Translations under genes and position numbers: made by a program
The notes under the pieces: generated by a model
Database searches by the model: none
Told to the model about the DNA's origin: nothing
What the model saw: only the letters and a program-made list of their open reading frames with translations
Origin: an uncultured bacterium
Lineage (GTDB): Bacteria > Patescibacteriota > Minisyncoccia > UBA6257 > GWB1-50-10
Direction of reading: 5' to 3'
NCBI GenBank assembly: GCA_963722655.1
Contig: CAVRNT010000001.1
Location: 17,447 to 81,446 of the forward strand
Length of the DNA stretch: 64,000 nucleotides
In this document: in pieces, positions 47,551-64,000 of the stretch
Layout: every line of letters starts with the position of its first letter
How positions within the stretch are numbered: position 1 is the stretch's first letter

Positions 47551-47807
47551 TATAATCCGGATTTAAGGAGGATGCTAAACGATGCCAGCAATAAAACCCT
47601 GGTGCCCCCTCATGGTCTCAGAATTGTAGGAATGAGACCACCTAAGGGTTATTTGACTATCTTTCAAAATAACGAATCTAGCCCTCTCGGTAGCATTCGT
47701 TATTTTATTGTAAGGCAAAACAAGAGCTTTTCAAATAGAAAAGGTGCTTTGGGATTGTTACGAAAGTGACAAGTTTTTGAGACTTTGGGATGTAACATTC
47801 TCAAACT

Positions 47808-48344
47808 CTAGACCAACCGCACATCCATCAGTCTTATCGTAAGCATATGTTCGCTTACTCTATAAAGTTTTGAAAGAACTTGAAGATCTGGGCTATTACC
47901 AAAATCCTTCTTTATAAATCCCGTTGGTACTAAAAGTTCTCCGGCAAAAAGATTGGCTTCTCTCTCGTTGTGGGTTCCATCATCCTGTTTATTTGTGCAT
48001 GTGTGTCCTAATAGTAAATGACCGATTTCGTGGGCTATGGTAAAGCGGCGTCGGCACCATGGCTGATTTCCATTGAAACCGATTGTAGCGTATTCAGAAT
48101 CAATTTCTTTACAAACCACCAACAAGCCGGAAACCTTATTTCCAATATTTATTTTTTTAACATCAAGATCATGAGTTGCCTGGAGATACTCAATAACACG
48201 CTGGAGCGAAACCGGCGCGGTGTTTATACTGGCTCCATTAATTACCTTCTGAGCAAGTACCTTGACCAGTTTTTTGCGCGGCCCCAAATCTGGAATATCA
48301 TTTTCCATCTCCACTCGTCTTGCTCCTTTGCTTAGCCAGATCAA
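47808..48344 (-). CDS. ImmA/IrrE-family (M78) metallopeptidase
   Basis: HEIGHLLLGH is the HEXXH zinc motif in the ImmA/IrrE context. It overlaps the XRE gene upstream by 47 nt. Confidence 0.8.
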   Translation of the reverse strand: MIWLSKGARRVEMENDIPDLGPRKKLVKVLAQKVINGASINTAPVSLQRVIEYLQATHDLDVKKINIGNKVSGLLVVCKEIDSEYATIGFNGNQPWCRRRFTIAHEIGHLLLGHTCTNKQDDGTHNEREANLFAGELLVPTGFIKKDFGNSPDLQVLSKLYRVSEHMLTIRLMDVRLV

Positions 48345-48648
48345 TAAACCGGAGAATAGCGTCCTTATCCTCCTTAGCGAGTTCTTTATCGGCTCGAAGA
48401 GCCACCTGAACAGTCGTGGTTGTTTTCTCGTCTTGTCCCAAGAAATATTTTATATCCCGGTGAAGTACCTCGCTTAGCCTCTGCAGAATAGATGAGGACA
48501 CCCCCCGTTCGCCACTTTCTATTAAAGAAATTGCGGTAGCCGACTGAAAGCCCAGAGCCTTGGCCAAATCGATCTGGGAAAGACCCATTTCCTCGCGGGC
48601 GGCCTTAATCCACGAACCTATATGGTTAGCGTTTGCTTCGTTTTTCAT
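48298..48648 (-). CDS. XRE-family helix-turn-helix transcriptional regulator
   Basis: GLSQIDLAKALGFQSATAISLIESGERGVS is the Cro/C1-type HTH. Confidence 0.8.
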   Translation of the reverse strand: MKNEANANHIGSWIKAAREEMGLSQIDLAKALGFQSATAISLIESGERGVSSSILQRLSEVLHRDIKYFLGQDEKTTTTVQVALRADKELAKEDKDAILRFIDLAKQRSKTSGDGK

Positions 48649-48750
48649 ATTGAAAGTATAGGCTTATCATTCCGATTTGACAATATTCACCATTTTGCTA
48701 AAATGGGTTTATCATTTTGGAAGGTCGCCAGTTAACCAGTAATAATCATC

Positions 48751-49023
48751 ATGAGCACATATCTCGTATCATATGACCTAATTCGCCCAGGGAAGGACTA
48801 TACCCACCTTCTCGAGCATCTTAGGAGCTACTCCGACTGGGCTAAGCCGCTCGAATCGGTATGGCTCTTGAAGAGCGGACTCGGGATCGCGGAGCTTCGC
48901 AATACGATCCAGGCCCATATGGATTCTAACGACAAGATTCTTGTCGTAGATATCACCGGAAAGGCTGCGGCGTGGGATAAACTCCCGAACGACGTCAGCA
49001 CGTGGATAAAAAACAACATATAA
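48751..49023 (+). CDS. hypothetical small protein (possible Cas2/VapD-like alpha+beta fold)
   Basis: 90 aa. MSTYLVSYDLIRPGKDYTHLLEHLRSYSDWAKPLESVWLLKS has the YxVxYDL...SVW pattern reminiscent of Cas2/VapD N-termini. No other support. Confidence 0.35.
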   Translation: MSTYLVSYDLIRPGKDYTHLLEHLRSYSDWAKPLESVWLLKSGLGIAELRNTIQAHMDSNDKILVVDITGKAAAWDKLPNDVSTWIKNNI

Positions 49024-49051
49024 AAAGTCGCTAAATAAATTATCGGCCATA

Positions 49052-49426
49052 GTGGCCAAAAAAACAACCATGGGATCAGGAGTAAATCGTAGGAAGGGGG
49101 ACAATATATCAATAACACCTCAAAAACCGCGTCCAATATCTGGCACGGGAGGAAGCTATTCCCCGACATCACAAGAAAATCGCAAGGGTCCGGTTTGCCC
49201 ATCTTCATTCCGGGCAGATTTAAGCCGCCACCTAATGATTGGTTCTCACCTATCATTGAGACAGCACGGCGAGACACTCGTTATTTACGCCGACTCCCAA
49301 GAAGTCGGACGCCTCAATCGAGCGACATCAAAAAGGATTATCAAATGCATTCTATCCGGATTTCGTTACGAAGGCGTCGTGAAGGAGAACGAGGGTCGAC
49401 AGTATGCTGAATTCACCCAAAAATAA
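49052..49426 (+). CDS. hypothetical protein
   Basis: 124-aa ORF. The N-terminus is low-complexity and basic. It overlaps the next gene by 23 nt. Confidence 0.3.
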   Translation: MAKKTTMGSGVNRRKGDNISITPQKPRPISGTGGSYSPTSQENRKGPVCPSSFRADLSRHLMIGSHLSLRQHGETLVIYADSQEVGRLNRATSKRIIKCILSGFRYEGVVKENEGRQYAEFTQK

Positions 49427-50531
49427 AACATTGCCATTATTTTCCGTAACTTGCGACGTCGCACACGGCAAGTTTTTGCCGTACATAACAAAAGACGAAA
49501 GTTACCAGGTGCAGATGCCCTGTAGCCCAAAGTCGGAGAATATCGTTTCTTGCAAAAATCCCGATCTCAGCACGTATTTGAAGGAGATTGATGGTTTGGA
49601 TTTTGTAACCGTTAGGGGCAAACCGATTACATTACCGATACCCAAACTTATCCCGATTATTGATAGGGGCCTGTTTAAAAATTCGGCTGAGATAATGGGT
49701 TATGACACTATTGGCATTTCCTTAGAAGACATCTTTTCTTCTTCGCCTCAAAGGAAAGATGGCAAGTTCTACATCCCCCAACTCAAAATAAGAGAGGACG
49801 CGTTACAGAACCCGATTTTCAAAAACAAGAAGGTGATACTTTTCTCGAGCGGAAGGGATGTATTGATCGAGAAAATTTGGCAGGATTTTTATGAACTGAG
49901 ATTTCCGGAGAAATTGTTCCAGATGGGTGTAGCTGTGGTTACCGGGATAAATTTTTCCGTTTTCTTGGACGATTGTCCTCTGTCAAAGGCATTAAACATG
50001 AAAAAGAGCCTGAAAACAGTAGAATACTTCCAGGACGCCGGGATCGAAACGATCCCGCATATATATTTCACGCACACGAACCATCTTCATCGTTGGAGTG
50101 CGTGGTTACAAGCGAATCCAGCCGTGAAAACCGTGGCGATTAACTGCCAATTCAGTCGCGATAGACGTGTCGCGCACATGGTAGCAGACGGCATAAAACT
50201 CTTGGCCGACAATGCGGGTCGCGAAATCCATTTCTTGCTTGAAGGACCGTCACTGTTTCTCTTAAACGAAATAAACCAGCTCGGATACATGACCAACATC
50301 ATGATTGCCATCAAAGAACCCTCTATGGACTCAATGTTTGGTAAATTATATTTTATAGAAAATGGTCGGCTCAAGAAGAAAACGACTTTCGGACTCAAAA
50401 TAGACCAACTGCTTACGCCAAATTTCAAGACATACGAAGAATACATAAGTCGTCTTTCTCCCAGATATTTTACTGTGGGCGCGAGTAATTCTCTAATATC
50501 CCAACAAAAAGGAAAATATTCTAACGGATAA
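49404..50531 (+). CDS. hypothetical protein (375 aa, no recognised domain)
   Basis: A long ORF with consistent codon usage. Conserved-looking blocks VILFSSGRDVLIEKIW and GINFSVFLDDCPLSKAL. No motif assignable by eye. Confidence 0.45.
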   Translation: MLNSPKNKTLPLFSVTCDVAHGKFLPYITKDESYQVQMPCSPKSENIVSCKNPDLSTYLKEIDGLDFVTVRGKPITLPIPKLIPIIDRGLFKNSAEIMGYDTIGISLEDIFSSSPQRKDGKFYIPQLKIREDALQNPIFKNKKVILFSSGRDVLIEKIWQDFYELRFPEKLFQMGVAVVTGINFSVFLDDCPLSKALNMKKSLKTVEYFQDAGIETIPHIYFTHTNHLHRWSAWLQANPAVKTVAINCQFSRDRRVAHMVADGIKLLADNAGREIHFLLEGPSLFLLNEINQLGYMTNIMIAIKEPSMDSMFGKLYFIENGRLKKKTTFGLKIDQLLTPNFKTYEEYISRLSPRYFTVGASNSLISQQKGKYSNG

Positions 50532-50566
50532 TTCATTCCATTCAAATATTTGATAAACTGAATTAT

Positions 50567-51379
50567 ATGAAAATGATAAAACTAAAAAAACTCCCTAAGC
50601 GCAACATATATGATAAGAATTATTACAAAGCCCAGGCAATGTTGCGGGATCCATGGTTTATAGAAAAAGCGGAATGGCTCAAGAAGCGTTTTACGGAGAT
50701 TGGTTGCTCCCTTCCCAAGAAGCCTTTTAAAAAATATAAAACATACCAAGCTTGGAATAAGAGATATTGGGATCGCTACACCGAGATGGAAAAAAGTCAT
50801 GAATTTTTAGAAGCAAAACGGCGAATCACAGGAAACAAGAGGATGATATCCATGGAAGAATTTAATGCGTTAGAGAATTTTCGAGAAGGATTTTTACCTC
50901 CCACATACGGCCGAGTGTTCACCGAGATATTGGAACATTTTGGCATTGGTTCAAAAGACGAGAGGTTCCGTAATTTCCTAGAATTCTATTTCTTTTTAGG
51001 GCAGAAGGAATATGTTAAGCCAAAGCTTTCAATAAAATTCACTAGGGATTCAAAAACCAATGAAACGGAAATGTTCCTGCGTATTTACGGATATACCAAA
51101 AAAGAAGATATTATGCGACAGTGGGATTGGATTTCATGGAATCAAAAGAGTCTTAAGGATTTCGTCGGTAAGAACAAGGCATGGAAAACATTCAATCGGG
51201 ACATCGCGATCTACAATCTCTACAAAAAAATGAAAGATCCTAAAACTAAGCGCCAGCCGAATGATAACGGCCTCGATACGAAACTTTGGCTGGCTTTAAA
51301 AGAGAAATGGCCGAAACTGACCATTAGTAGCGTTCGCACCATCGTAAATAGAACTCGGAAAAGACTTGGCGAAATCTAG
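50567..51379 (+). CDS. hypothetical basic Trp-rich protein
   Basis: 270 aa, very AT-rich coding sequence. Lys/Arg/Trp-rich (WFIEKAEWLKKRF, YQAWNKRYWDRY). No recognised domain. Confidence 0.45.
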   Translation: MKMIKLKKLPKRNIYDKNYYKAQAMLRDPWFIEKAEWLKKRFTEIGCSLPKKPFKKYKTYQAWNKRYWDRYTEMEKSHEFLEAKRRITGNKRMISMEEFNALENFREGFLPPTYGRVFTEILEHFGIGSKDERFRNFLEFYFFLGQKEYVKPKLSIKFTRDSKTNETEMFLRIYGYTKKEDIMRQWDWISWNQKSLKDFVGKNKAWKTFNRDIAIYNLYKKMKDPKTKRQPNDNGLDTKLWLALKEKWPKLTISSVRTIVNRTRKRLGEI

Positions 51380-51445
51380 TATTTACGGTTAAACAATCTG
51401 CTTAACAGCGACACAGGGTGTCGCCTTTCTGTTTAAGATGGGAGC

Positions 51446-52723
51446 ATGATTAAAAATAAATTAGTTTGGCGCACAGAAATGCGCCACGTGTCGGACTTGG
51501 TGCCGAATCCTCGGAATCCCAGGACCATGAGCCCGAGTCAGACGGAAGCGCTCAAGAAAAGTCTTAGTAAATTCGGGGTGGTGGAACTTCCGGTTATAGA
51601 TGCGGATAATCAGGTGATCGCCGGACACCAGCGATTAATGGCTCTCCGTCTTCTCGGCCGGGAAAACGAGGAAATCCCGGTCCGAGTGCCGAACAGAAAG
51701 CTCACGAAGCGCGAGTATGACCAATATATGCTCACGAGCAACCGTGTGCACGGCGAATTCGATTGGGACAAACTCGCCGAGAATTTCGATATCGATGCCA
51801 TCCTCGCGAGTGGATTCGAGGATGCGGATCTCTCGCTCATATTTGACGACGTTTCCGTAGAAGACGACGAATTCAGAATCGACGATGAATTAAAGAAGAT
51901 AAAGAAAACGGACGTTAAACCTGGAGATTTATACCAACTTGGCTCTCACCGGATCATTTGTTCCGATTGCACGGACCCTAAATCGGTCAAAAGACTCATG
52001 GATGGCAAGAAGGCCGGTGTTATCCTCCAAGACCCGCCTTTCAACATAAATCTGAGCTATAACGCCGGAATCGGCGGCAAAGGCAATTACGGCGGCACCA
52101 TGGACGATTCAAAATCGGACGAGGAATATGAATCGCTTCTCCGCAAGGCGCTGGCGAACGGCCTCTCCGCCTGTGCGAAAGACGTGCATGTATTCACGTA
52201 CCACGATCCCCGATATGCGTGGCTTCTCCAAAAATTATATAAGGAACTCGGCATTACGTACCGGCGAACTTGTCTATGGATCAAGAATAATTCCACACCG
52301 ACACCAAAAGTGGCTTTCAACCGACAGTACGAACCCGCACTTTATGGAACGATCGGGAAACCGTACCTTTCTGAACGCGCTTTCAATTTCTCGGAAATCC
52401 TCAATCACGATGTCGGAAGCGGTAATCGCACGATCGACGACATCTATGATCTCATCGATATATGGCTCGTGAAGCGGCTGAGTGGATCGGAATACGAACA
52501 TCCGACCGAGAAACCGCCGATGCTCCACGAACGGCCGCTACGTCGCTGTTCGAAGCCGGGAGATATCATCCTTGATCTCTTCTCAGGATCGGCGAGCCTT
52601 ATGGTCGCTTGCCATCAATTGAAGCGGATCGCGTATATGGTCGAACGCGAGCCGATTTTCGTGCAGCTTGCGCTAAATCGTTATGAAAAACTCACGGGAC
52701 AAAAAGCAAAAAGAATCGCCTAA
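51446..52723 (+). CDS. ParB-like nuclease domain fused to beta-class N6-adenine/N4-cytosine DNA methyltransferase
   Basis: N-terminus RHVSDLVPNPRNPRTMSPSQTEALKKSL...VIAGHQRLMAL is ParB/Srx-like. DPPF motif IV (ILQDPPFNINLSY). C-terminal motif I FSGSAS. Confidence 0.85.
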   Translation: MIKNKLVWRTEMRHVSDLVPNPRNPRTMSPSQTEALKKSLSKFGVVELPVIDADNQVIAGHQRLMALRLLGRENEEIPVRVPNRKLTKREYDQYMLTSNRVHGEFDWDKLAENFDIDAILASGFEDADLSLIFDDVSVEDDEFRIDDELKKIKKTDVKPGDLYQLGSHRIICSDCTDPKSVKRLMDGKKAGVILQDPPFNINLSYNAGIGGKGNYGGTMDDSKSDEEYESLLRKALANGLSACAKDVHVFTYHDPRYAWLLQKLYKELGITYRRTCLWIKNNSTPTPKVAFNRQYEPALYGTIGKPYLSERAFNFSEILNHDVGSGNRTIDDIYDLIDIWLVKRLSGSEYEHPTEKPPMLHERPLRRCSKPGDIILDLFSGSASLMVACHQLKRIAYMVEREPIFVQLALNRYEKLTGQKAKRIA

Positions 52724-53456
52724 GCCCGGCGCAATCTGGCAGCTCGGGGTACATCGCCTCGCCTACGGGGATTGCCGCGACAAGAATCTTTTGGAAAGAC
52801 TCATTGGCAAAGAAAAAATCAACCTCGTCTGTTGCGACGTGCCGTACGGCGTGGATGTCGCCGCCTCGAAGCGGAACTTCCGCACCCTTTCCAAAGACAA
52901 GGACATCGCGAACGACCAAACCCAATCGAATGCGGAATACCGGTCATTCAGCCGCGAATGGCTTCAAGCAATCACGCCATCCCTGGCAAGTAAAAACTCC
53001 GCCTATATCTTCAACGCCGATAAGATGGTTTGGCCACTCCGAGACGGGATGATCGACGCCGGATTCAAGGTGGCCCAGCTCCTCGTGTGGGTGAAATCGC
53101 AGGCGGTTATCGGCCGACTCGATTACGCCCCGCAGCATGAGCTTATTCTCTACGGCTGGCACGGCACTCATAAATACCGCCGGTCAAAAGACAGAAGCGT
53201 TCTGTTCTATCCGAGGCCATCTAAGAGCAAACTGCATCCGACGACCAAGCCCATCGGCCTTATCCGTCGTCTCATTCTCAACTCATCGGAAATCGGGAAT
53301 GCAGTCTACGACGGATTTCTCGGAAGTGGAACCACTCTTCTCGCTTGCGAGCAGACGAAACGCAGATGCCTTGCGGTGGAAATTGATTATGAATATTGCC
53401 AAACGGCAATCCATCAGTGGGAACGACTGACGGGCAAAAAAGCAAAACGACTATGA
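52683..53456 (+). CDS. beta-class DNA methyltransferase (N6-adenine/N4-cytosine)
   Basis: Motif IV CCDVPYGV (a DPPY variant). C-terminal motif I FLGSGTT. It overlaps the preceding MTase by 41 nt. Confidence 0.85.
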   Translation: MKNSRDKKQKESPKPGAIWQLGVHRLAYGDCRDKNLLERLIGKEKINLVCCDVPYGVDVAASKRNFRTLSKDKDIANDQTQSNAEYRSFSREWLQAITPSLASKNSAYIFNADKMVWPLRDGMIDAGFKVAQLLVWVKSQAVIGRLDYAPQHELILYGWHGTHKYRRSKDRSVLFYPRPSKSKLHPTTKPIGLIRRLILNSSEIGNAVYDGFLGSGTTLLACEQTKRRCLAVEIDYEYCQTAIHQWERLTGKKAKRL

Positions 53457-53941
53457 AAAAGAACGACCAGACGAAGAAACTTATTATCGAGCAGCTGCAC
53501 AAAACACCGATAGTGGAAGTGGCGTGTCAGAAAATCGGCATATCGAGGATGACCTTTTACCGCTGGAAGAAAGACGAGCCGGAATTCGCGAAGCTTGCGG
53601 ACGAGGCGATTTTCGAAGGCCAATCCCTCATGAACGATCTAGCGGAAAGCCAGCTCATCGGCGCGGTCAAGGAAAGGAATCTGCCCGCAATCATATATTG
53701 GCTCCGGCACCACCATCCCGATTATGCGAATAAGCTTGAAATCAAGCACGCGATTCAGGACGAAAATCTGACTCCGGAACAGGAAGCGCTCGTCCGGGAA
53801 GCTTTAAGACTAGCCACCTTGAGTGAAGAAAAGGTCGAAATCAACCCAGAAGAAAAAATCGATGAATTACAAGAACATAATCCCGCCGGAACTGACGGAG
53901 GCGATGATAAAGGACCGGAAGGTGCGGGTGGCGATCACTAA
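53453..53941 (+). CDS. putative terminase small subunit / HTH DNA-binding protein
   Basis: HTH region IVEVACQKIGISRMTFYRWKKDEPEF. Its position is directly upstream of terL. The start is taken at Met20, overlapping the MTase stop (ATGA). Confidence 0.45.
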   Translation: MKKNDQTKKLIIEQLHKTPIVEVACQKIGISRMTFYRWKKDEPEFAKLADEAIFEGQSLMNDLAESQLIGAVKERNLPAIIYWLRHHHPDYANKLEIKHAIQDENLTPEQEALVREALRLATLSEEKVEINPEEKIDELQEHNPAGTDGGDDKGPEGAGGDH

Positions 53942-55323
53942 AGAGAGCCACTGGTACTTCTTCCATTTTTACTTCGCCCACTACGTCAAATATCCGACGG
54001 CGAAATTCCAAGCCGAGATATTCGAATTGACCGAAAAGGACAACGGCAATTTCTTCGTCGTCGCTTTCCGCGGAAGCAGCAAATCCACAATCCTCACGAC
54101 CTCATATCCGATCTGGGCGATCTTGGGAAAACAGCAGAAAAAATTCGTGCTCATCCTCTGCCAAACGCAGAGCCAGGCGAAACAGCATATGATGAATCTC
54201 CGCCGGGAGCTTGAAAGCAACGCCATTCTCAAAAGGGATCTGGGTCCGTTCCGCGAAGAATCCGACGAATGGGGTTCGTCGTCTTTGGTGTTTTCGAATA
54301 TGAACGCCCGCATCACCGCCGCCTCGAGCGAACAGAGCATTCGTGGTTTGCGGCACAACCAGCACCGGCCGGATCTCATCATCGGAGACGACGTGGAGGA
54401 TTTGGCATCCACCAAGACCCGGGAAGGCAGGAACAAGACGTACCAGTGGCTCACGGGCGAGGTTATCCCGTCCGGCGACCGAAGCACCCGGATCGTAGTC
54501 GTGGGGAACCTTCTCCACGAAGATTCTCTCCTCATGCGGATCAAGGAAGATATCGGGAATCAGAAGATCGACGGGGTATTCAAGGAGTACCCGCTCATGC
54601 TGAACGGCGAGATTCTGTGGCCGGGGAAGTATCCGTCCATCGACGATATCCAAGATGAAAAAAGGAAGGCGGGAAACGAATTCGCCTGGGAGCGGGAGTA
54701 CATGCTCCGCATCGTGCCGGACGAAGAACAGGCGATCCTTCGCGAGTGGATCCAATATTACGATGAGCTCCCTTCTGGAGAGACCGATTGCCAGGGGTAT
54801 CCGAAGCACGTCGAGGTGCGTATCGGCGTCGATCTGGCGATCTCGAAGCGCGATACCGCCGATTACACCGCCATGGTTCCCGGGTGGCTCTACGGAGATG
54901 ACAGGGATACGAGAATCTACATCCTACCGGATATTATTAACCGCAGAATATCGTTCCCTGAAACGGTCGATCTCTGCAAAGCACTCAACAGGAAATACGA
55001 GGAGGAGCAATCAAATCCCACGTTTGTCATTGAGGATGTCGCATACCAAAGATCTCTCCCTCAACAGCTTGAGAGATGAGGGAATCCGGGACGTGAAAAC
55101 CACCCATCCGGGCAATCAGGACAAGCGGAGTCGTCTCATACTCACCGCGAACGTCATCAAGAACGGCAAGGTGAAGTTTCCGAAACAAGGTGCCGAAGGG
55201 CTCATAAACCAGATCGTTCACTTCGGCGTCGAGAAACACGACGATCTCGCCGACGCGTTCTCGAACCTCGTCCTGAGCGTCATAGAAGATCCGCCGTCCG
55301 TTCCGAGAATATGGCTGCTTTAG
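53862..55323 (+). pseudogene. terL: phage terminase large subunit, interrupted by a +1 frameshift near 55075
   Basis: Frame A (to 55079) has the ATPase Walker A FRGSSKST, Walker B LIIGDDVED, and nuclease motifs I and II (RIGVDLAISKRD, FVIEDVAYQ). Frame B (55076-55323) continues with ...IVHFGVEKHDDLADAFSNL, which is nuclease motif III. The N-terminal start is uncertain. Confidence 0.7.
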
Positions 55324-56688
55324 TCATTTGGATTCGGCTTCGTCGGGAATCGTTTCGAGGTATATTTTCCTATCTTTCAGGATGAGTTTGCTTCGCAGAC
55401 TCAGAAGGATGTGGCGTTTCTCTTCTATGGTTCCTTCGGCCAAGAGATACTTCACGTACTTCTTGGTGTCGGCGTTGCGTTCTTCGACGTTCGCATATCC
55501 TCCCGGATTTCCCATCACGTCGCGATGGAAACGATAGATGCGTTCCACCTCGGCGTCGAATTGTCCCTGAACGCCGAGGTCTTCGAGCGTCAGCTGGTCC
55601 ACCAAATTGCGGATCTGCTCGATGAGATCCGCTTCGCGGACGTAAAGCAATTTGCACTGCGGATTTCTGACGCGCGTGCAGCCGTAGTAAACGTACTTGG
55701 CGATCGAGCCGTCTTTGAGCGTCTTGAACTTTTCCTCCCCGCAGATGCCCGATCCGCAAAGCCCGCATTTCATGAGGCGCGTGAACGCGAAGTTCTTACG
55801 GAAAATGGCGAAGAGATGTTTCCGGCGGGTCAGGGCTTTGGCAACGGCGTCAAAAAGCTCTTCGGAGACGATCGGCTGGTGTTGTCCTTTGTACCACTTG
55901 CCGCTATGGATCGGGTATTCAAATTCGCCGTAGTAGAACGTTCGGCGCAGGATCAATTGGACCGTGCTCAACGATATGTGCTTCCCGTTCGGGGAAAGAA
56001 AATGCAATTCATCCCTCAACCATTCCCGAATTCTGCGCTGACTCCATCCGTCCGCCGCTTTCTCGAACATCATGCGGATTACGTGCGCCCGGGCGGGATC
56101 GGTAAGGAGTACGCCGCGGCGGTCCTTCTTGTCGTCGCTCACATATCCCATCGGGGGAACGCCCGGCCAGCAGCCCCGTTCGCAGAGCGCCCGAAGCCCG
56201 CGCTTCACGTTGATGCTGCGGTTATCATTCTCGAGTTTGGCTTGGGAGCCGAGAATCATGAGAAGGAACTTCTCGTTCGGCGAATCGCTGAACTTTTGGT
56301 TGTACGTCCGAATGTCCAAGAGCAGCTTCTTATCCATGAGATCGACGAGTCGCCCGAGATCTCCGGCGTTCCTGCTCAGGCGATCGGGGTTCCACGTGAG
56401 AATCCCGTTGTATCTACCGTTCGTTATCTCCTCAAGCATTTTATTGAATACCGGACGCTCGCCGGAATCTTTGGCGGAATGGGCTTCGGTGCGTACGACT
56501 AAAATATGGAGATTGTCCCGTTCCGCCACTCGTTTCATTTCCACGATCTGCGAATCAATCGATAATGCTTGCCGCTCTTCCGTTTCCATGGATTTCCGGG
56601 CGTAAAGACAATATTCTATCGGCAGAGGTGTTTTTTGCTTTGTTGTGGTCGCGATTTCAGGCGACCCCTCTTTTATTACATCGTTCAT
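55324..56688 (-). CDS. large serine recombinase (resolvase/invertase N-domain + recombinase domain + zinc ribbon)
   Basis: The N-terminal catalytic region EYCLYARKSMETEERQALSIDSQ contains the candidate nucleophilic Ser (YARKS). Recombinase domain (GYVSDDKKDRRGVLL). Cys4 zinc ribbon CGLCGSG...YYGC. Coiled-coil C-terminus. Confidence 0.85.
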   Translation of the reverse strand: MNDVIKEGSPEIATTTKQKTPLPIEYCLYARKSMETEERQALSIDSQIVEMKRVAERDNLHILVVRTEAHSAKDSGERPVFNKMLEEITNGRYNGILTWNPDRLSRNAGDLGRLVDLMDKKLLLDIRTYNQKFSDSPNEKFLLMILGSQAKLENDNRSINVKRGLRALCERGCWPGVPPMGYVSDDKKDRRGVLLTDPARAHVIRMMFEKAADGWSQRRIREWLRDELHFLSPNGKHISLSTVQLILRRTFYYGEFEYPIHSGKWYKGQHQPIVSEELFDAVAKALTRRKHLFAIFRKNFAFTRLMKCGLCGSGICGEEKFKTLKDGSIAKYVYYGCTRVRNPQCKLLYVREADLIEQIRNLVDQLTLEDLGVQGQFDAEVERIYRFHRDVMGNPGGYANVEERNADTKKYVKYLLAEGTIEEKRHILLSLRSKLILKDRKIYLETIPDEAESK

Positions 56689-56819
56689 AAGTATTGGTTG
56701 ATTTTTTATTTCTTAAAGACATAAAAAAGCCATCAGATATTTTTATGGTGGACGAAAAAGGGCAGTAATAATCTTCTCTGATTTGGAGTGAAGATTTACG
56801 CCGACATTAAACAAGGATT

Positions 56820-57732
56820 TTACTTGTTGTATTCGTAGCTCTGCCTGATAAGGGCCGTCACGGCGTCAATATCTTCGTCGCGGCTAAGTCTCACTTCATA
56901 GTCGCCATTGCCCCAATGACCGATGGCTTTCGGTTTCGTAAGATCTCGCGCCAGTCCCAGGGGATCGATGAGATTTCCGCTCGGAACATTAAGAAAGATT
57001 TTGAGTGCATCCTTAGAAACTACGATATCCACGAAATTCGTCGTCAGCTTGTATGCGATATACTTTGCCTTAGGTTCTTCGGTAATTGATTCATCAAGAG
57101 AGGTGATTTTCTCTTTAATGGCCGAGAAAAGCTCTTGGATGTGCGGGCTGGCGGTCTTTAAGATGGTCTTCGATGGTGTGTTGGATTTTTTCCTTAAATT
57201 CGCCTTTCTGTTTTTCTATTTTCTCAAAAATCTCTGAGGTTGAGATTTTCACCTTGCGTTGCACTTCGGGGTCAACGAGAAGGATATTGTTTTCATACAT
57301 GCGATACCGCAGAAGCTCAATGTCCATCGGTAGAAGATCAGCGGTATCAAGATCGAATTTATTGTAGCTCTCCGCAACGCAGATCACGCGTGGCGAAGCC
57401 CAATCTATTTCAATCTTGATTTCTAATCGGTGTACTAATGCTTCAAAATCCGCTTTGTGATCCAGAAGCCAGCGGAGATATGAAAGTCCTTGGTTGATGA
57501 CGTTCTCATTCTGACCACGCTTGTATTCGATGATGACCGGAGAACCGTTGTGATCGATGCCTAGGGTATCCATGCGTCCACCGAAACTCGTTGGGTATTC
57601 GGAGGCAAGGAATATGATATCTAAAATCTCCTCAAGATTTTTCTCGAAGATTTTCTGAATATCCTTTTCAAGCCCGACTTTTACAGACGGAACCTTTCTT
57701 GCTGCATTATTGTTTATGGAATATATAGCCAT
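56820..57732 (-). pseudogene. PD-(D/E)XK (DUF91/NucS-like) nuclease family protein, split by a frameshift at a T6 homopolymer
   Basis: The 205-aa N-terminal ORF has GGRMDTLGIDHNGSPVIIEYKRGQ (D...E.K). The downstream frame, open from 57215 and ending at 56820, encodes a further 130-aa domain. The two frames overlap across the ttttt-t run at 57186-57191. Confidence 0.55.
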
Positions 57733-57743
57733 GATGAGTGGCT

Positions 57744-57870
57744 AGCGGAGGGGTATATAAACACTAAGCCCCGCGCTAGCTAGGTCTTGCGACCCTACAC
57801 CGGTTTCCCGATATAGCCCTTGGAAGAGTCGCTGAACGCGGGGTTCAGTATCTTCCAAGGGTCTTTTTAG
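57744..57870 (+). promoter_or_regulatory. nested palindromes / strong terminator-like structure in intergenic region
   Basis: gctagcg...cgctagc (57744-57780). Then cccttggaaga-gtcgctgaac-gcgggg-ttcagta-tcttccaaggg (57817-57861), followed by tcttttt. Confidence 0.5.
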
Positions 57871-57947
57871 CCATGCCAAGCAAAATACCTGGTTTAGGCG
57901 ATCTATCCAATATTCAATTATTTAAAGAATATCACGCTTTTTGCAAT

Positions 57948-57977
57948 TTGACAGCACACCCCTCAGAGAGCTAAGTT
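57948..57977 (+). promoter_or_regulatory. candidate sigma-70 promoter for the 57987 gene
   Basis: TTGACA-N18-TAAGTT ends about 10 nt before the ATG. Confidence 0.3.
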
Positions 57978-57986
57978 CAAGAACAA

Positions 57987-58748
57987 ATGGAATTTAATAT
58001 GAGAAAAACAAGAGAATTTTTTGGTAAGTTAGATTGGAAACTTATTTTATTTCCGATTGTATTCCTGTTATCGGCCTATGCATCGTATCTTCTACTTAGA
58101 TCATACTTCTCCCCAGCATTACGTCCCAGTATTATCTTTTTGATGGTGCTGGCATCTGTGACCATAGCCTTCGTTTTAACTGGCCTTATTTTTGCAATCT
58201 TCATATTGTGTCTGCTCACATTATTTGCGCCAATTAACAGCCACTTTTTTAATAAGTATTTAAAGACGGTTAAGCAGGACGCCTCGGCGGGAGTAGCTAT
58301 TATTCTCGGACGCCCTAATTGGTTTAAATTCAAAGGGTGGTATAAAATCAACTTTACTAAACGCGAGATGGAGTTAATTTTCGGATACTTAGGAAAAAGA
58401 TGGTTGGACTTTCGTGTTTATCCGCACGCAAGTTTCGAGGATATCGAGAAGATAATGGGCGATTCTAGTATCCGGGAAGTTTTCTTCTGCGGTCATGGAG
58501 ATTCTCACACCTTCAGACTAACCACCGATGAAACCATCTTTTATTGTGACTTTAAGGGTCCAAAATACAAGAAAGATTTCGTACATCAGGTACATTGTGG
58601 AACAAAAGATGGCAGCGATAGAAGATTAATCGATTATGTTGTGCCTGAAGAAAATCGCGGCCAATGTTTCTATTTTCCTAAATCAATTACCTCTCGCGAT
58701 ATCAGAAAAGAATTTGAGAGAAGAATAGAAAGATTGACTAGCCATTAA
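57987..58748 (+). CDS. two-TM membrane protein with conserved His/Cys-containing C-terminal domain (hypothetical)
   Basis: 253 aa. Two TM helices (residues 20-90). The C-terminal soluble domain has VFFCGHGDSHTF...IFYCDF...VHQVHCGTKDG. Confidence 0.5.
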   Translation: MEFNMRKTREFFGKLDWKLILFPIVFLLSAYASYLLLRSYFSPALRPSIIFLMVLASVTIAFVLTGLIFAIFILCLLTLFAPINSHFFNKYLKTVKQDASAGVAIILGRPNWFKFKGWYKINFTKREMELIFGYLGKRWLDFRVYPHASFEDIEKIMGDSSIREVFFCGHGDSHTFRLTTDETIFYCDFKGPKYKKDFVHQVHCGTKDGSDRRLIDYVVPEENRGQCFYFPKSITSRDIRKEFERRIERLTSH

Positions 58749-58761
58749 ACATGGCTAACTT

Positions 58762-61700
58762 TTATTCCGGGAATTTACCACCCGAAATATCGAAGTACTT
58801 ATCAAAGAAACGCGTCAATTTATTTAGAACACTCTCTCGTTTATGCGTACGCTCTCCGGTCGGTGAAAAACGCGATACGGGCGGAAGCACTTTTGTCAGC
58901 GCCGTTCCGGTTGAGGCGACTACGCCGTCACGGAAAGAATTACGCACAAAAGTGTATGTTGCATTACGATCAAGATTTTCCTTCGCGATAATGGTATCGA
59001 GATCCTCGATCTTTTTCTTATCCACAAATTCGTGCCAATCTTCATCGACAATTGAATGAACATCGAGTGATGAGATGAACTGATTGATCAGCTCTTTTTT
59101 ATTACGCAGCTCTACACTGGAATCAATGGCTTTATTGATGTCGATCAAAAGCTCGCGATTTTTCGTGTGACCCTCGTGATATTTTTTGATGAGCGTCAGC
59201 ACGTAATCGATATTGATTTCCACCTGCTTGATCAATTCCATTTCAAACACGACATCATCGATAATACTTTCCTTTTCCTTCTCGACGCCTTTTCGAAATT
59301 CAGCGTAGAGATCGATATACATACTGTGATAATCCTGAATATCACGCTCAGTCAAAATCTCATTGCCAGCAAATTCATCGAAAGCCATTAGAATATTACG
59401 CAACCGCAAGATCGCCCCGTATAGCTTTATAAAATCTTTTTGGTTTTGCTCCCCGACGATCTGCTCTCCGGCAGGGAATTTCTTCATGAGTTCATCCACT
59501 AAGCTCACGTATCCATAAACCTCTTTATCAACGTCTTTATAACCGTTGTAATAGTCGGCGTATGATTTCAAAAGAATGATACCGCCCGCCTCCTTATCGC
59601 CAAAGAGAGCCACTGATTCATTGGTCGCTCGTTCTAAATTGCGAAAGCAAACGATATTTCCAAAAGTTTTTACACTGTTCAGAATTCGATTTGTCCGTGA
59701 ATATGCCTGCAAGAGGCCATGCAATCGCAGATTCTTATCCACCCAGAGTGTGTTGAGCGTCGTTGCGTCAAAGCCGGTCAGAAACATATTAACGACGATC
59801 AGGATGTCGATCTCGCGATTCTTGACCCTCAAACTGACATCCTTGTAATAATTTTGGAATTTGTCGGATGAAGTGTCGTACGACGTTCCGAACATTGCAT
59901 TGTAATCCTCGATGGCCTTCTCCAAAAAATCCCTTGAGCTGGCATCGAGACCGCTGGTATCCTCCGAATTTTCATCAACAACACCGTCCGCTTCCTCTTC
60001 GTTCACTCCGAAACTGTAGATGAGTGCTACTTTGAGACGTTTATCGCTCGGGACGTCCGTAAGTTGTTTCTTAAACTCGGCATAGTATTTTTTGGCAACA
60101 TCTATAGATGCGGTAGCAAAGATCGAGTTGAATCCAGCGAGCCTTCTTTCGTTCAATTTATAGAAGCTATTGCGTTTGGTCTTCTGATCGAAATGCTCAC
60201 GGATATAACGCACGATATTAGTAAGTCGATCCGGCGCAGAAAGTACCGCTTCGCGATCGATATCGCTCACTTTCTTGTCCTCTATATTTTCCGCCTCACG
60301 CACCGTAGAAACGTAGTCAACCTTAAACGGCAGAACATTTCTATCATTGATGGCATTTACGATGGTATAGGTATGCAGTTTTTCACCAAAGGCCTGTTCG
60401 GTGGTCTTTAAATCAGGGCGCCCACCAGAAGAGGCATTTACCGCAAAGATCGGCGTGCCGGTAAATCCAAAAAGGTGATAATTTTTGAACGCCTCCGTGA
60501 TGGCATCGTGCATATCGCCAAATTGGGAACGGTGACATTCGTCGAAAATAATCACGACATGCTGGTTAAAAATAGCATGGCCGACATTCCGTTCGATGAA
60601 ACGGTCGAGTTTTTGGATGGTGGTAATAATGATTCGCGCATTCGGATTCTCGAGTTGACGCTTCAGAATGGCGGTAGAGGTATTACTGTTTGCTGCTCCT
60701 TTTTCAAATTTGTCGTATTCGCGCATCGTCTGATAATCCAAGTCCTTACGATCCACCACAAAAAGTACCTTATCAATATAGGGAAGTTTGCTCGCAAGTT
60801 GCGCCGTCTTAAAACTGGTAAGCGTTTTACCGGATCCGGTAGTGTGCCAGATATATCCTCCGGCCTCAACAGTGCCAAGCTTCTTGTAATTCGTACTGAT
60901 TTCAATGCGACTCAAGATGCGCTCAGTCGCAACGATCTGATAGGGGCGCATCACGAGCAGTTGCCAATCGGCAGTAAATACACAATATCGGGTTAGGATT
61001 TTTAAAAGGACATGCTTCGCAAAAAATGTTTTCGCAAAATCCATCAAATCCGTAATCGGCGCATTTGTCGCATCAGCCCACCAGCTCGTGAATTCAAAAC
61101 TATTGCTCGTACGCTTTCCCTTTTTTACCGCACCCTCATTCATCTCCTTAATATGCGTGTTGCGCGTGGTGTTGCTGTAATACTTGGTATGTGTGCCGTT
61201 TGAAATGACGAATATCTGGACATATTCAAAAAGACCCGATGATGCCCAAAAACTTTCCCGCTGATAACGGTTGATTTGGTTGAATGCTTCCTGAATGGCC
61301 ACGCCACGACGCTTCAGCTCGATGTGCACCAGCGGCAATCCATTTACAAGCACGGTTACATCATATCGATTAGCGCGTTGTCCTTCGTCAGTCGCATATT
61401 GGTTGATAACCTGTAAATCGTTGTCATGGATATTATCTTTCTTCAGAAGATAAATATTTTTTACCGCGCCGTCATCGCAAGTGAGATTCTTGATATAATC
61501 CTCCTGAATCGTCGCAGTTTTTTCTTCAATGCTCTGATTGGGGTTGGCGAGTTCTCCCGCAAAAAACGATTCCATTCGGCATCGCTAAAAGTGAAATCGT
61601 TTAACCTCTCCAGTTCACGGCGCAAATTCGCGATAAGGTCTTCCTCGCTCGCGATAGGCAAAAATTCGTAAGCCTGAGCCTTAAGCTCACCGATGAACGC

Positions 61701-61817
61701 GTGTTCAAGCTCCGCCTCGCTTTGATAGGTTATCGGATGTGATTTGCTCGGCATATATTTGGCCACTACCGTGCTTTCAGGATTTTCAACGATCAAATTA
61801 ATTTGATGCTCTTCCAT
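58762..61817 (-). pseudogene. hsdR: type I restriction enzyme R subunit (EcoR124I-like), interrupted at a T6 homopolymer
   Basis: The N-terminal 118-aa ORF (61461..61817) aligns with the EcoR124I HsdR N-terminus (YQSEAELE...FSDAEWNRF). The 937-aa ORF (58762..61575) continues (ELANPNQSI..., RYDVTVLVNGLPLVHIELKRRG nuclease motif, TGSGKT, DECHRSQ helicase motifs). The frames join at tttttt (61561-61566). One extra T would give NRFFAGEL. Confidence 0.8.
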
Positions 61818-61818
61818 G

Positions 61819-62286
61819 TTAAGAGAAGGTTAAAAGTTTAGTTCGATAATATTCATACTGCGATTGACGAGCAGAAATCTCGGCGGGAAGGCCAATGGAA
61901 ATATCGGTTACGAGCACATCAAACTTGTCTAAGATAGAAACGATACGTTCCTGCTCGACAAGTGGTGGGAGAGGAATTCTATATTTTTTGACTTCAGTAT
62001 CCGATATCGCTGGGTAGTTTGTCCCTCTTTGTGCATTTTCTACATACTTAGAAAACCTCCGCAGACCTAGCTGATGGTATATATAATTTGTTAGGGTTTC
62101 AGTGCTCTTAGGGCGCAAAACACAAAATCCAGTACTACAGATTTGTCCATCATATTGATCAGTAATAATACAAAAACGTCCCAGCGTTGGTCTTGTTGTG
62201 CCAAAAATTACGTCGCCAGTTTTTACAATTTTTTGTGCTCGACTTGGCGCCGTCTCATTATCAATTTTTTGCGTGTCCGTGATCAT
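61819..62286 (-). CDS. hsdS: type I R-M specificity subunit, C-terminal half (TRD2 + distal conserved region)
   Basis: IPLPPLVEQERIVSILDKFDVLVTDISIGLPAEISARQSQYEYYRTKLLTF is the conserved HsdS C-terminal region. The start is taken at MITDTQ. Confidence 0.7.
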   Translation of the reverse strand: MITDTQKIDNETAPSRAQKIVKTGDVIFGTTRPTLGRFCIITDQYDGQICSTGFCVLRPKSTETLTNYIYHQLGLRRFSKYVENAQRGTNYPAISDTEVKKYRIPLPPLVEQERIVSILDKFDVLVTDISIGLPAEISARQSQYEYYRTKLLTFS

Positions 62287-62354
62287 GTGTTTTTCTCTGT
62301 CTACCGAAGACAAATCAATGTAATAGAATTGCCCTCCTATATTTTCTGACCATT

Positions 62355-63074
62355 TTATTGTTTAGTTATTTCACAAATTTCACTAAGCGGAGCCCACCGT
62401 ACCCCCCCCTCTTCGTCAAACGTTAAAAGCTCCGAGCGGTAATACTCGTATTGCTTCTTTCTTGCTTCTAGCTCTGCTTCTAGCTCTGCTTCTAGCTCTG
62501 CTTCTAGCTCTGTAAAATTATCTAAAATATTTATAATCTCTTTTTGGATGTCAAGCGGCGGGAGAGGGATTTTTATTTTTGCAAACCGCTTTTTTGAAAC
62601 GTTGAAACGCGTAACTCCACTCGCAGTTTTTGCAATTTGCTTTCTCATTTGTTCATCCCTAAATAAATATTTTGAGAACTCCGGTAAAAGTAGGGTTTTG
62701 TCGTTCAAGCGAAAGCCAAAACAAAAACTGTTGAGATATAACGACCCATCGACTTTCTTTGTTAAGACAGAAGACATGCCACATTCATTCGGTGTTTCAG
62801 ACGAACCAGTAAACAACACATCGCCGTACTCGATTTTGTTTTGTGATTCACCCTTACCTACCCTGACAAAGTCTTTAATATCGGTTTTTACAGCAATATT
62901 AGAAAACACATTCATGTAGGTAACAAATTTGGCGTTACCATCGTGAAAATCATCTTTACTCTTTCCAGTTAATCCACCATAAAACTCACCTAATTCACCT
63001 AGTGTCCTAAACTCCACTCCGTCCGGGCAGAGCTCCGCGATCAGTTTTTCAATTTTGCTTTGGCGTTTTGTCAT
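62355..63074 (-). CDS. hsdS: type I R-M specificity subunit, N-terminal half (TRD1 + central conserved region with ELEA x4 repeat)
   Basis: IPLPPLDIQKEIINILDNFTELEAELEAELEAELEARKKQYEYYR is the central conserved region. It ends shortly after TRD2 begins (VRWAPLSEICEITKQ*). The ATG overlaps the hsdM stop (ATGA). Confidence 0.75.
   Translation of the reverse strand: MTKRQSKIEKLIAELCPDGVEFRTLGELGEFYGGLTGKSKDDFHDGNAKFVTYMNVFSNIAVKTDIKDFVRVGKGESQNKIEYGDVLFTGSSETPNECGMSSVLTKKVDGSLYLNSFCFGFRLNDKTLLLPEFSKYLFRDEQMRKQIAKTASGVTRFNVSKKRFAKIKIPLPPLDIQKEIINILDNFTELEAELEAELEAELEARKKQYEYYRSELLTFDEEGGVRWAPLSEICEITKQ
62464..62511 (-). repeat. 4 x 12-bp perfect tandem repeat (gcttctagctct) encoding (ELEA)4 in the hsdS central conserved region
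   Basis: Direct reading gives four identical 12-mers at 62464-62511. Confidence 0.9.
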
Positions 63075-64000
63075 TTTGTTCCTTCTATATCTGCCACGAT
63101 ATCATCGATTGCACTGCGAAGTTTTTGTTGTCGCTCAACGATGCTGGCTATCTCCGCGTTGAGCGTCACGATGTCCACTACCTCGCGCGTGTCTTCCGCC
63201 ACCACATAGCTTGATACAGCGATGTTATAATCGTTTTCTGCGATAGCTTTGTTATTCACGAGCTTCGCAAAATATTTCATATCCTTCCGCGCGATGAATG
63301 CATTCAATATTTTCGTGCGATTCGCTTCCGTAAGCTTGTTTTTATTTCCAGCATGCAAAAATTCGGCCGAGGCGTCTATAAAAAGTGTCTTGTTATCCTT
63401 CTTACTTTTCTTCAGCACAATGATACAGGTGGCGATGGTAGTGCCAAAAAATAGGTCGTGCGGAAGTTGGATGACGGCATCGATATAGTTGTTGTCGACG
63501 AGATACTTGCGAATCTTCTGCTCTGCCCCGTTGCGGTAAAGCACGCCGGGGAATTCAACAATTGCTGCCGTGCCATTAGTGGCAAGCCACGAGAGCATGT
63601 GCATCGTGAATGCGAGGTCAGCCTTACTCTTTGGCGCAAGAATACCCGCCGGAGAAAAACGCGGATCATTAATAAGGAGCGGATTGCTGTCGCCCTCCCA
63701 ATGAATAGAATATGGCGGATTGGACACAATGGCCTCGAACGGTTCATCATCCCAATGCTTTGGGTCGATGAGTGTATCGCCGTGCTCGATATCGAACTTG
63801 CTGTAATTTATATCGTGCAAAAACATATTGATGCGGCAAAGGTTGTAGGTGGTGAGGTTGATTTCCTGCCCAAAGAAACCAATCCGCACATTTTCTTTAC
63901 CGAGGATCTTTGCGAATTTAAGGAGAAGCGAGCCAGAGCCACACGCCGGATCATACACCTTATTCACCTCCTTCTTCCCAACGATAGCGATCCGCGCCAA
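63071..64000 (-). CDS. hsdM: type I R-M N6-adenine DNA methyltransferase subunit (partial, N-terminus beyond window)
   Basis: Motif I VYDPACGSGSLLL, motif IV NPPYSIHW, and an HsdM C-terminal coiled region. The ORF runs to the window edge. Confidence 0.85.
   Translation of the reverse strand: MARIAIVGKKEVNKVYDPACGSGSLLLKFAKILGKENVRIGFFGQEINLTTYNLCRINMFLHDINYSKFDIEHGDTLIDPKHWDDEPFEAIVSNPPYSIHWEGDSNPLLINDPRFSPAGILAPKSKADLAFTMHMLSWLATNGTAAIVEFPGVLYRNGAEQKIRKYLVDNNYIDAVIQLPHDLFFGTTIATCIIVLKKSKKDNKTLFIDASAEFLHAGNKNKLTEANRTKILNAFIARKDMKYFAKLVNNKAIAENDYNIAVSSYVVAEDTREVVDIVTLNAEIASIVERQQKLRSAIDDIVADIEGTK

Follow-up and report, generated by a model that had tools for sequence, protein, structure and literature searches.

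Probable satellite-like integrative elements of Patescibacteria that carry a complete terminase and no capsid genes

Phage-inducible chromosomal islands (PICIs), such as the Staphylococcus aureus pathogenicity islands (SaPIs), are small islands that sit at a specific attachment (att) site and comprise an integrase, a divergent master repressor, a terminase small subunit (TerS) of their own and accessory or defence cargo, with no structural or lysis genes. Their integrase is of the tyrosine type; in addition, they possess a primase or replicase with an origin, use the terminase large subunit (TerL) of the helper phage, and in many cases encode proteins that remodel the capsid size. P4-like satellites are likewise mobile islands, with variable slots that hold diverse anti-phage systems; they have no terminase genes, rely on the cos packaging of the helper, and encode a primase and a capsid-size determinant. 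Both TerS and TerL are encoded by the capsid-forming PICIs (cf-PICIs) and by the Streptomyces satellites MulchRoom and MiniFlayer, which also carry a portal, a major capsid protein (MCP), a protease or scaffold and head-tail connectors; moreover, MulchRoom and MiniFlayer are without key replication genes (PMC10690885). Here we describe an island in a 64,000-nt stretch of DNA (hereafter the window; contig CAVRNT010000001.1, positions 17,447 to 81,446) from an uncultured bacterium of the Patescibacteria, also known as the candidate phyla radiation (CPR). The island belongs to a conserved family of integrative mobile elements that is specific to CPR, and we consider it somewhat more probable than the contrary that this family is satellite-like and is packaged in the capsids of helper phages. 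The family is apparently undescribed, as a literature search of incomplete coverage returned no description of it or of the genomic context of the LOOT RNA that it carries.

The island begins near 47.6 kb, and the window ends inside it, so its own right part is not visible. Its core was assigned by profile searches of the window proteins against Pfam, PHROG and PADLOC. A leftward two-gene switch comprises an ImmA/IrrE-type metalloprotease, the anti-repressor half (47808..48308, minus strand; Pfam Peptidase_M78, E=2.9e-16), and an ImmR-like repressor of the XRE family (48298..48648, minus strand; Pfam HTH_3, E=8e-13). The metalloprotease gene was also called in L001, an independent Logan short-read assembly that is 100% identical to the window over 47667-54064 (6,398 bp). 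The switch is divergent from a rightward operon that runs from p270 to TerL. The first gene of this operon, p270 (50573..51379, plus strand), was defined by clustering. It is followed by the core gene of a ParB-like domain fused to an N6/N4 DNA methyltransferase (ParB-MTase; 51479..52723, plus strand), which matches Pfam N6_N4_Mtase (2e-22), phrog_498 (9e-87) and the ParB-like phrog_620 (6e-26), the PHROG ParB-like matches lying on residues 9-168. A second N6/N4 DNA methyltransferase (52683..53456, plus strand; Pfam, 4e-28), present in a subset of loci, precedes a helix-turn-helix (HTH) TerS (53453..53941, plus strand; phrog_309 with E=3.6e-10, phrog_4102 and phrog_4044), present in 73 loci, and TerL (53904..55323, plus strand; phrog_38, E=1.5e-68). 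Tail to tail with TerL lies the large serine recombinase SREC1 (55324..56688, minus strand), with the Pfam domains Resolvase (PF00239), Recombinase (PF07508) and Zn_ribbon_recom (PF13408); the stop codons of the two genes touch, with zero intergenic bases. A preliminary description of the window, made from the letters alone, had named the XRE regulator with ImmA, the ParB-MTase, the second methyltransferase, the HTH-type TerS, TerL and the large serine recombinase, and the Pfam and PHROG profiles confirmed every one of them. Its statement that portal, capsid and tail genes are missing also holds, as the same searches found none over 47.6-64 kb.

The same gene set recurs widely. With the reading frame of TerL repaired (see below), 3,980 homologues were found at E<=1e-10, of which the best 120 are 71-96% identical and, wherever a name is given, belong to CPR. 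Relatives occur in at least 260 GTDB species representatives and 395 metagenome stretches. Neighbourhoods were compared in 80 genomic, 20 viral and 80 metagenomic loci, using a longest-open-reading-frame (ORF) caller and blastp clustering with the window proteins. Loci with a TerL 48-96% identical to that of the window have a common order: variable cargo, a leftward repressor, a small variable rightward gene, the ParB-MTase with or without the second methyltransferase, TerS and TerL, then up to five variable genes, a large serine recombinase, and more variable genes that often encode type I restriction-modification (R-M). The repressor is a LexA-like S24 protein in most loci (25-27 others) and of the ImmA/XRE type in some. 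The slot of p270 is filled in other loci by alternative, unrelated proteins (clusters C5, C9 and C19, besides p270). In every one of about 170 loci, TerL abuts the recombinase or a cargo gene, with no structural genes within 10 kb; hidden Markov models of portal and MCP built from related phages found no homologue in the element loci or in the metagenome set. When 105 recurrent neighbour clusters were searched against Pfam and PADLOC, no structural or replication family was among the 25 most frequent families listed. No window gene matches a replication module in Pfam or PHROG, with some doubt remaining for p270, p375, C5, C9 and C19, which are unannotated. Recurrent cargo comprises CBASS cyclases with SAVED effectors, Thoeris-type TIR proteins, type I and type III R-M, Mokosh, PbeA, MADS components, reverse transcriptases and PDC-S18. 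The closest relative, L003, has a TerL protein 96% identical to that of the window (82% for L004) and also carries non-phage genes past TerL.

Two observations concern database labels. Nine IMG/VR contigs filed as viral (L084-L092) hold the methyltransferase, TerS, TerL, cargo and the recombinase, with no structural genes, and are probably islands of this family, not viruses. Eight carrier contigs (L007, L008, L019, L024, L043, L076, L078 and L079) are labelled Gammaproteobacteria, Flavobacteriaceae, Omnitrophota, Dysgonamonadaceae or Nanoarchaeia, which points to mis-binning, automatic mislabelling, or a host range beyond CPR.

The core is under strong purifying selection. Between the window and L003 (dS 0.42-0.66), the ratio of nonsynonymous to synonymous substitution rates (dN/dS) is 0.029 for the ParB-MTase, 0.071 for the second methyltransferase, 0.039 for TerS and 0.050 for TerL. 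The TerL residues RG..KS, DD.E, D324 and HDD..D, which make up the Walker A, Walker B and nuclease motifs, are invariant across 14 sequences including those of true phages; in the window TerL, the HDD..D block is out of frame. Since the same order recurs and the genes are under purifying selection, the lack of structural genes is not a product of decay. The closest true phages are CPR-associated siphophage-like contigs in IMG/VR (L093-L098, among eight true-phage loci, L093-L100), with TerL proteins 35-40% identical; the best match among TerL proteins of deposited phages is 26-27% identical. These contigs share with the elements the order ParB-MTase, TerS, TerL and identical catalytic residues. 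They differ in what surrounds this block, as a replication initiator precedes it and the portal, protease, MCP, adaptors and tail follow it, whereas in the elements TerL leads into cargo and the recombinase. By gene order and motifs, the element core is the packaging end of a phage genome of which the rest was not kept, and the siphophage-like contigs of CPR likely represent the evolutionary source of this packaging module.

The island contrasts with its surroundings in base composition. Most of the window has a GC content of 0.53-0.65, against 0.39-0.54 from about 47 kb through the end at 64 kb, with an immediate step at about 47 kb from 0.57-0.65 to 0.39-0.54, which bears out the sharp drop noted in the preliminary description. 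GC is also low (0.44) in window positions 1-1000. The ClpC-like gene left of the island has its best homologues, at 79%, 75% and then about 59% identity, in Patescibacteria; these place the island in a Patescibacteria (CPR) host, in line with the streamlined or CPR-type bacterium that the preliminary description had supposed.

Five related contigs with an empty insertion site (L104-L108) share an island-free synteny of S20, RuvA, Mur ligase, beta-CASP, LOG, Wzy_C, tRNA-Arg(CCG), a 114-aa gene, ClpC, MFS, PolX, NUDIX and L20. In the window, the island begins directly past the 114-aa gene, and the tRNA-Arg(CCG) present at this site in all five contigs is absent from the window. Host homology stops near 47588 compared with L104 and L107, and the element sequence in common with L003 begins at 47602 with GTGCCCCCTC (reverse complement GAGGGGGCAC), a motif similar to the 3' end of tRNA-Arg(CCG). 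These alignments delimit a left junction and candidate attL at 47589..47613. From 47602 to 47771, a non-coding left-end segment of 170 bp is 92% identical to L003 25-195 (blastn) and starts with the motif GAGRGGGCAC; it is conserved although the regulator and cargo genes between this segment and the core differ. The lengths of the five host genes that adjoin the island equal those of their orthologues. As relatives have the site empty, host homology ends near 47588 and a tRNA-3'-like motif lies at the junction, the island is an insertion at the tRNA-Arg(CCG) locus of a Patescibacteria chromosome; its right end, beyond the window, is expected to hold the intact tRNA-Arg(CCG). The limits first proposed, 47560-57732, need revision on both sides: the left end lies at about 47589-47613, and the island passes 57732 to at least 64 kb, with a LOOT RNA, a 253-aa gene and hsdR, hsdS and hsdM, at low GC throughout.

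A view past the window is given by L002, an error-rich, 96.7%-identical contig of a related strain from another sample, which covers 55307-64000 and 2.2 kb further. Beyond hsdM it contains a second recombinase, SREC2, on the plus strand, and then a terminator hairpin. Its right end was considered as Wzy_C or tRNA-Arg, and had no Wzy_C match and no tRNA. A common insertion site was also sought through the ClpC homologue in L043, where the gene arrangement proved different. Independent assemblies break about 65 bp inside the left end of the island (L001, 47667), inside TerL (L001, 54064) and exactly at the TerL/SREC1 junction (L002, 55307), which may reflect strain heterogeneity, repeats shared among co-occurring elements, or alternative junctions. 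At the empty sites, the ORF call of Wzy_C overruns tRNA-Arg(CCG) (L104 8261-9625, with the tRNA at 9543-9615; L107 8252-9613; and equivalents), so that the last ~27 codons of these calls are probably an annotation artefact.

The family recombinase was found in 54 of 84 sources. Of 62 cases, 58 have it downstream of TerL and on the TerL strand, directly adjacent in 25 of these; in all, 59 recombinases share the strand of TerL and three oppose it. Among the recombinases of the set, SREC1 alone follows TerL on the opposite strand. Right after its TerL, L003 carries a 23-codon remnant of an inverted recombinase (8364-8432, aligned to window 55324-55392), followed by an SNase gene. As L003 retains this remnant, the inverted arrangement predates the split between the window and L003; the remnant also provides sequence evidence that cargo has been replaced by deletion and insertion at exactly this point. 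SREC2 of L002, a paralogue of SREC1 about 9.4 kb downstream, occupies the usual place of the family recombinase; both proteins belong to the recombinase family of the element, and all three domains (Resolvase, Recombinase and zinc ribbon) are present in each of the 120 listed SREC2 homologues. Two recombinases per locus also occur in several other loci. An invertible SREC1-SREC2 segment flanked by inverted repeats was considered and rejected, as the only long match is the recombinase paralogy itself (70%). We tentatively explain the pair by tandem accretion, or by rearrangement, at a tRNA hotspot.

Serine-integrase att sites have a 2-bp crossover and no long flanking direct repeats. Among ten loci with a flanking tRNA, nine have no direct repeat of at least 11 nt. 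In the tenth, L013, a 22-bp repeat of the 3' end of tRNA-Trp (1574-1595 and 19846-19867) bounds an 18.3-kb island that holds CBASS, a LexA-like repressor, the core, a LOOT RNA, the serine recombinase and further cargo.

To our knowledge, LOOT was earlier known only as an orphan metagenome motif, without host, context or function. The window copy (57782..57900, minus strand; Rfam RF03000) scores 81.4 bits against a gathering score of 46.4 and spans all model positions, 1-121 of 121. It shares the strand of a DUF5655 gene, which begins 43-50 nt downstream. In a search of 100 sources with a covariance model derived from nine copies, 39 sources yielded a total of 41 copies, and the eight true-phage loci had none; besides the window, the carriers are L004, L006-L009, L011, L013, L016, L023-L025, L027, L028, L030, L033, L035, L036, L038, L039, L044, L045, L047, L050, L052, L053, L063, L067, L069, L070, L072, L075, L077, L080-L082, L086 and L090. 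In an alignment fitted to the model, 92% of the cells pair, compared to 31-39% in slid controls, and both partners change in 33 of the 37 pairs. Almost all copies of LOOT sit 40-80 nt upstream of a same-strand cargo gene, which encodes a tRNA_anti-like OB-fold membrane protein in 16 cases and an SNase, DUF5655 or other protein elsewhere. This gene is usually the first after TerL and reads towards TerL. In 12 loci the recombinase starts divergently from LOOT, at a distance of 125-160 bp in ten and closer in two. By its position, LOOT is part of the element backbone, with the behaviour of a 5' leader to an exchangeable cargo gene; alternatively, it may act in trans or have a role related to the recombinase.

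A 90-aa small phage-family protein of phrog_1090 (48751..49023, plus strand; E=2.7e-25), with weak Cas2-like similarity, falls into cluster C63 and accompanies the ImmA/XRE switch also in L038, L053 and L083. The 375-aa protein p375 (49404..50531, plus strand) has a weak DUF4417 match, occurs in the window and L001 only, and is not conserved in the family. Apart from the weak DUF4417 match, searches with p270 and p375 returned nothing in Pfam, PHROG, PADLOC or PDB; single-sequence AlphaFold models were unusable, with predicted local distance difference test (pLDDT) values of 49 for p270 and 41 for p375. To the right of SREC1 lies a candidate defence gene of the DUF5655/PDC-S18 type with an N-terminal nuclease-like domain (56820..57732, minus strand; PADLOC PDC-S18, E=1.3e-97), of which L002 encodes an intact 303-aa Pfam DUF5655 homologue. 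Past LOOT, a predicted membrane protein of 253 aa (57987..58748, plus strand) belongs to the cargo and has exactly the same sequence in L002. It is followed by a type I R-M locus of HsdR, the restriction subunit (58762..61817, minus strand; Pfam HSDR_N, ResIII, SWI2_SNF2, T1R_D3 and EcoR124_C), HsdS, the specificity subunit (61819..63074, minus strand; Pfam Methylase_S on both of its ORFs, 239 aa and 164 aa), and HsdM, the methylase, which runs off the window end (63071..64000, minus strand; Pfam N6_Mtase, E=7.7e-94). The central region of HsdS contains a (LEAE)x4 repeat; in other type I systems, the copy number of repeats of this kind is known to alter specificity.

Four genes of this copy are frameshifted. 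TerL has a single extra G near 55075, CTTGAGA[G]ATGAGG, in a short GA repeat; L003 and L004 are without that base. Its frame-0 product ends at 55079 and lacks the HDD..D nuclease block, as the C-terminal ~80 aa lie in the +1 frame together with HDDLADAF, the motif that the preliminary description had placed there. A programmed frameshift was rejected, since every relative encodes TerL in one uninterrupted ORF, to which the window adds a single base. The split that the same description saw in the nuclease gene is real for the DUF5655/PDC-S18 gene; its placement at a T6 run is not, as the indel mapped against L002 is one extra base at 57163. The T6 run at 57186-57191 is 23 nt away, and the window and L002 read an identical protein through it. 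The gene broken at a T6 run is hsdR, with a 1-nt deficit at 61561-61566 that puts HSDR_N profile positions 1-70 and 70-196 on two ORFs. All three type I genes are present, hsdR and hsdS each in two frames, so that an intact system is not found here. A homopolymer is thus involved in one of the four frameshifts, that of HsdR, and independent clean assemblies cover none of the four sites. Because the dN/dS values show that the core was constrained for nearly all of its divergence, the TerL lesion is recent or artefactual. With its frameshifts and an additional family-type recombinase of atypical orientation, this copy has probably been inactivated recently and rearranged, or tandemly accreted, unless the frameshifts are assembly errors.

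Compared to the systems described at the outset, the element most resembles a PICI-type satellite, yet it fails the definitions of both PICIs and cf-PICIs with regard to replication, TerL and capsid genes. Unlike PICIs, it has a large serine recombinase, no recognisable replication module, always TerL and the ParB-MTase, and a distribution confined to CPR; unlike cf-PICIs, MulchRoom and MiniFlayer, it encodes none of their head proteins in ~170 loci. Of the PICI-like satellite suggested in the preliminary description, the satellite half stands as the better of the two readings offered there, with packaging by a helper proposed on the strength of the gene content, and the PICI half does not. 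The switch types, ImmA/XRE and LexA-like S24, are those of temperate phages, integrative and conjugative elements (ICEs) and PICIs. We favour a satellite model because genes for lysogeny and packaging are present and those for particle building, replication and lysis are not. In this model, the repressor would be inactivated by DNA damage or by an infecting phage, and the serine recombinase would excise the element. Its own TerS would then recognise the element DNA, which its own TerL would load into procapsids of the helper. The methylases would protect the DNA in advance against restriction in the next host, where the recombinase would integrate it; defence cargo, and probably also interference with helper packaging, would pay for the upkeep of the element in its host. 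A bolder proposal, which we put forward with less than even confidence, is that the family represents phylum-wide terminase-only phage satellites, integrated by serine recombinases, which form the main shuttle of defence systems among CPR, with LOOT as a platform for cargo expression or regulation or possibly as an RNA partner of the adjacent recombinase.

Several points weigh against packaging by a helper. TerL must dock on a portal, and TerL proteins 60-80% identical across distant CPR lineages are odd if they have to match many different helpers. No helper phage was identified, the nearest true-phage TerL being that of the siphophage-like contigs, and among the ~170 loci no contig is circular or has redundant ends. 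Genes for replication or capsid remodelling are not recognisable, and the slot of p270, C5, C9 and C19 is unannotated. The repeat that bounds the L013 island, at its length, fits tyrosine integrases better than serine integrases. What is known of SREC2 and of the right end of this copy comes only from the noisy contig L002; the best homologue of SREC2 is only 85% identical, and among the matches listed none of at least 95% comes from the source contig. No characterised satellite is known to have TerL and lack a portal of its own (PMC10690885; PMC10085698).

Part of this evidence would also suit a packaging module domesticated for defence, in which TerS, TerL and the ParB-MTase are an anti-phage system and the recombinase only moves the island, so that the element spreads by other means and is never packaged. 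The terminase could then cut or mis-package the concatemers of an invading phage, with the methylases marking self DNA. The core does sit among defence genes in nearly all loci (CBASS, Thoeris-type TIR, type I/III R-M, Mokosh, PbeA and PDC-S18), its pairing of methyltransferases with an ATPase-nuclease resembles R-M logic, neither a helper phage nor an episomal form was found, and the high conservation of TerL across hosts fits a host-side function. We nevertheless regard this explanation as unlikely. TerS, TerL, the recombinase and p270 match no PADLOC family; the block retains the exact order and partners that it has in phages; a sequence-specific TerS is hard to explain if foreign DNA is the target; and a lysogeny-type switch implies a silent, inducible operon, unlike most defence systems, which are constitutive. 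A terminase that packages the chromosome in situ from a pac site, in the manner of a gene transfer agent (GTA) or of lateral transduction, into capsids encoded elsewhere or by a resident prophage, would mobilise flanking host and defence genes and not the element. This would account for the missing replication module and for variable defence cargo on both sides of the core, and in other bacteria PICIs and phages are documented to spread defence genes by lateral transduction (PMC12829572). We rate it as very improbable. A GTA has its terminase within a vertically inherited chromosomal head-tail cluster, whereas the element has no head-tail genes, is an insertion relative to its empty-site relatives, has its own recombinase and clear insertion boundaries, and moves between distant hosts with different flanks; no structural cluster occurs in any 20-kb neighbourhood, and CPR genomes of ~1 Mb rarely carry prophages (PMC6509639; PMC12455944).

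An ordinary prophage might continue with its structural genes past an inserted cassette of R-M and recombinase genes, or might have lost everything after TerL in a one-off deletion. The window does stop inside the island, four frameshifted genes are typical of decaying prophages, and two recombinases at one locus suggest rearrangement. However, in a temperate prophage of the Caudoviricetes, head, tail and lysis genes follow the terminase, whereas here ~170 independent loci share an identical truncation point with recombinase or cargo after TerL and no structural genes within 10 kb; the core dN/dS is 0.03-0.07, L003 has non-phage genes after TerL, and the 2.2 kb of L002 past the window hold a recombinase and no phage genes. 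At the level of the family this explanation is already largely refuted, and for the locus we deem it highly improbable. Two earlier ideas change with it: a prophage remnant does not explain a gene set that is identical in ~170 loci and under purifying selection, and the word degraded fits this copy alone, for its frameshifted TerL, DUF5655, HsdR and HsdS genes, the missing structural genes being part of the family design. The structural genes that might have lain just past the window were not seen as far as L002 reaches, where the second recombinase stands in their place. A mis-joined contig, or frameshifts that are consensus errors, would leave nothing to conclude on decay or integration. The DNA comes from a metagenome-assembled genome, breaks in independent contigs fall at 47667, 54064 and 55307, and none of the four frameshift sites lies in an independent clean assembly. 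Against such an artefact, which we take to be improbable, L001 matches 6,398 bp of the island at 100% identity, the junction coincides exactly with a tRNA locus, intact in relatives, and bears a tRNA-3'-like motif, the five adjoining host genes have full orthologue length, and only one of the four frameshifts, that of HsdR, is at a homopolymer.

Much of bacterial diversity belongs to the CPR/Patescibacteria, and how they move genes and cope with phages is almost unknown. A single element type found in hundreds of species with defence cargo is a testable candidate for the main route by which CPR exchange defence genes. If helper packaging is true, the satellite model would amount to a new satellite design, with a full terminase, no capsid and no replicase, and would raise the question of how a foreign TerL docks on the portal of a helper. 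Missing structural genes are by themselves no proof of a decayed prophage, and calls of "incomplete prophage" or "viral contig", such as those of the IMG/VR contigs L084-L092, misclassify a distinct element. Thousands of natural large serine recombinases come with the family as well; their insertion sites can be defined, and genome engineering may draw on them. The orphan LOOT RNA, in turn, gains a host, a set place in the genome and a role that can be put to the test.

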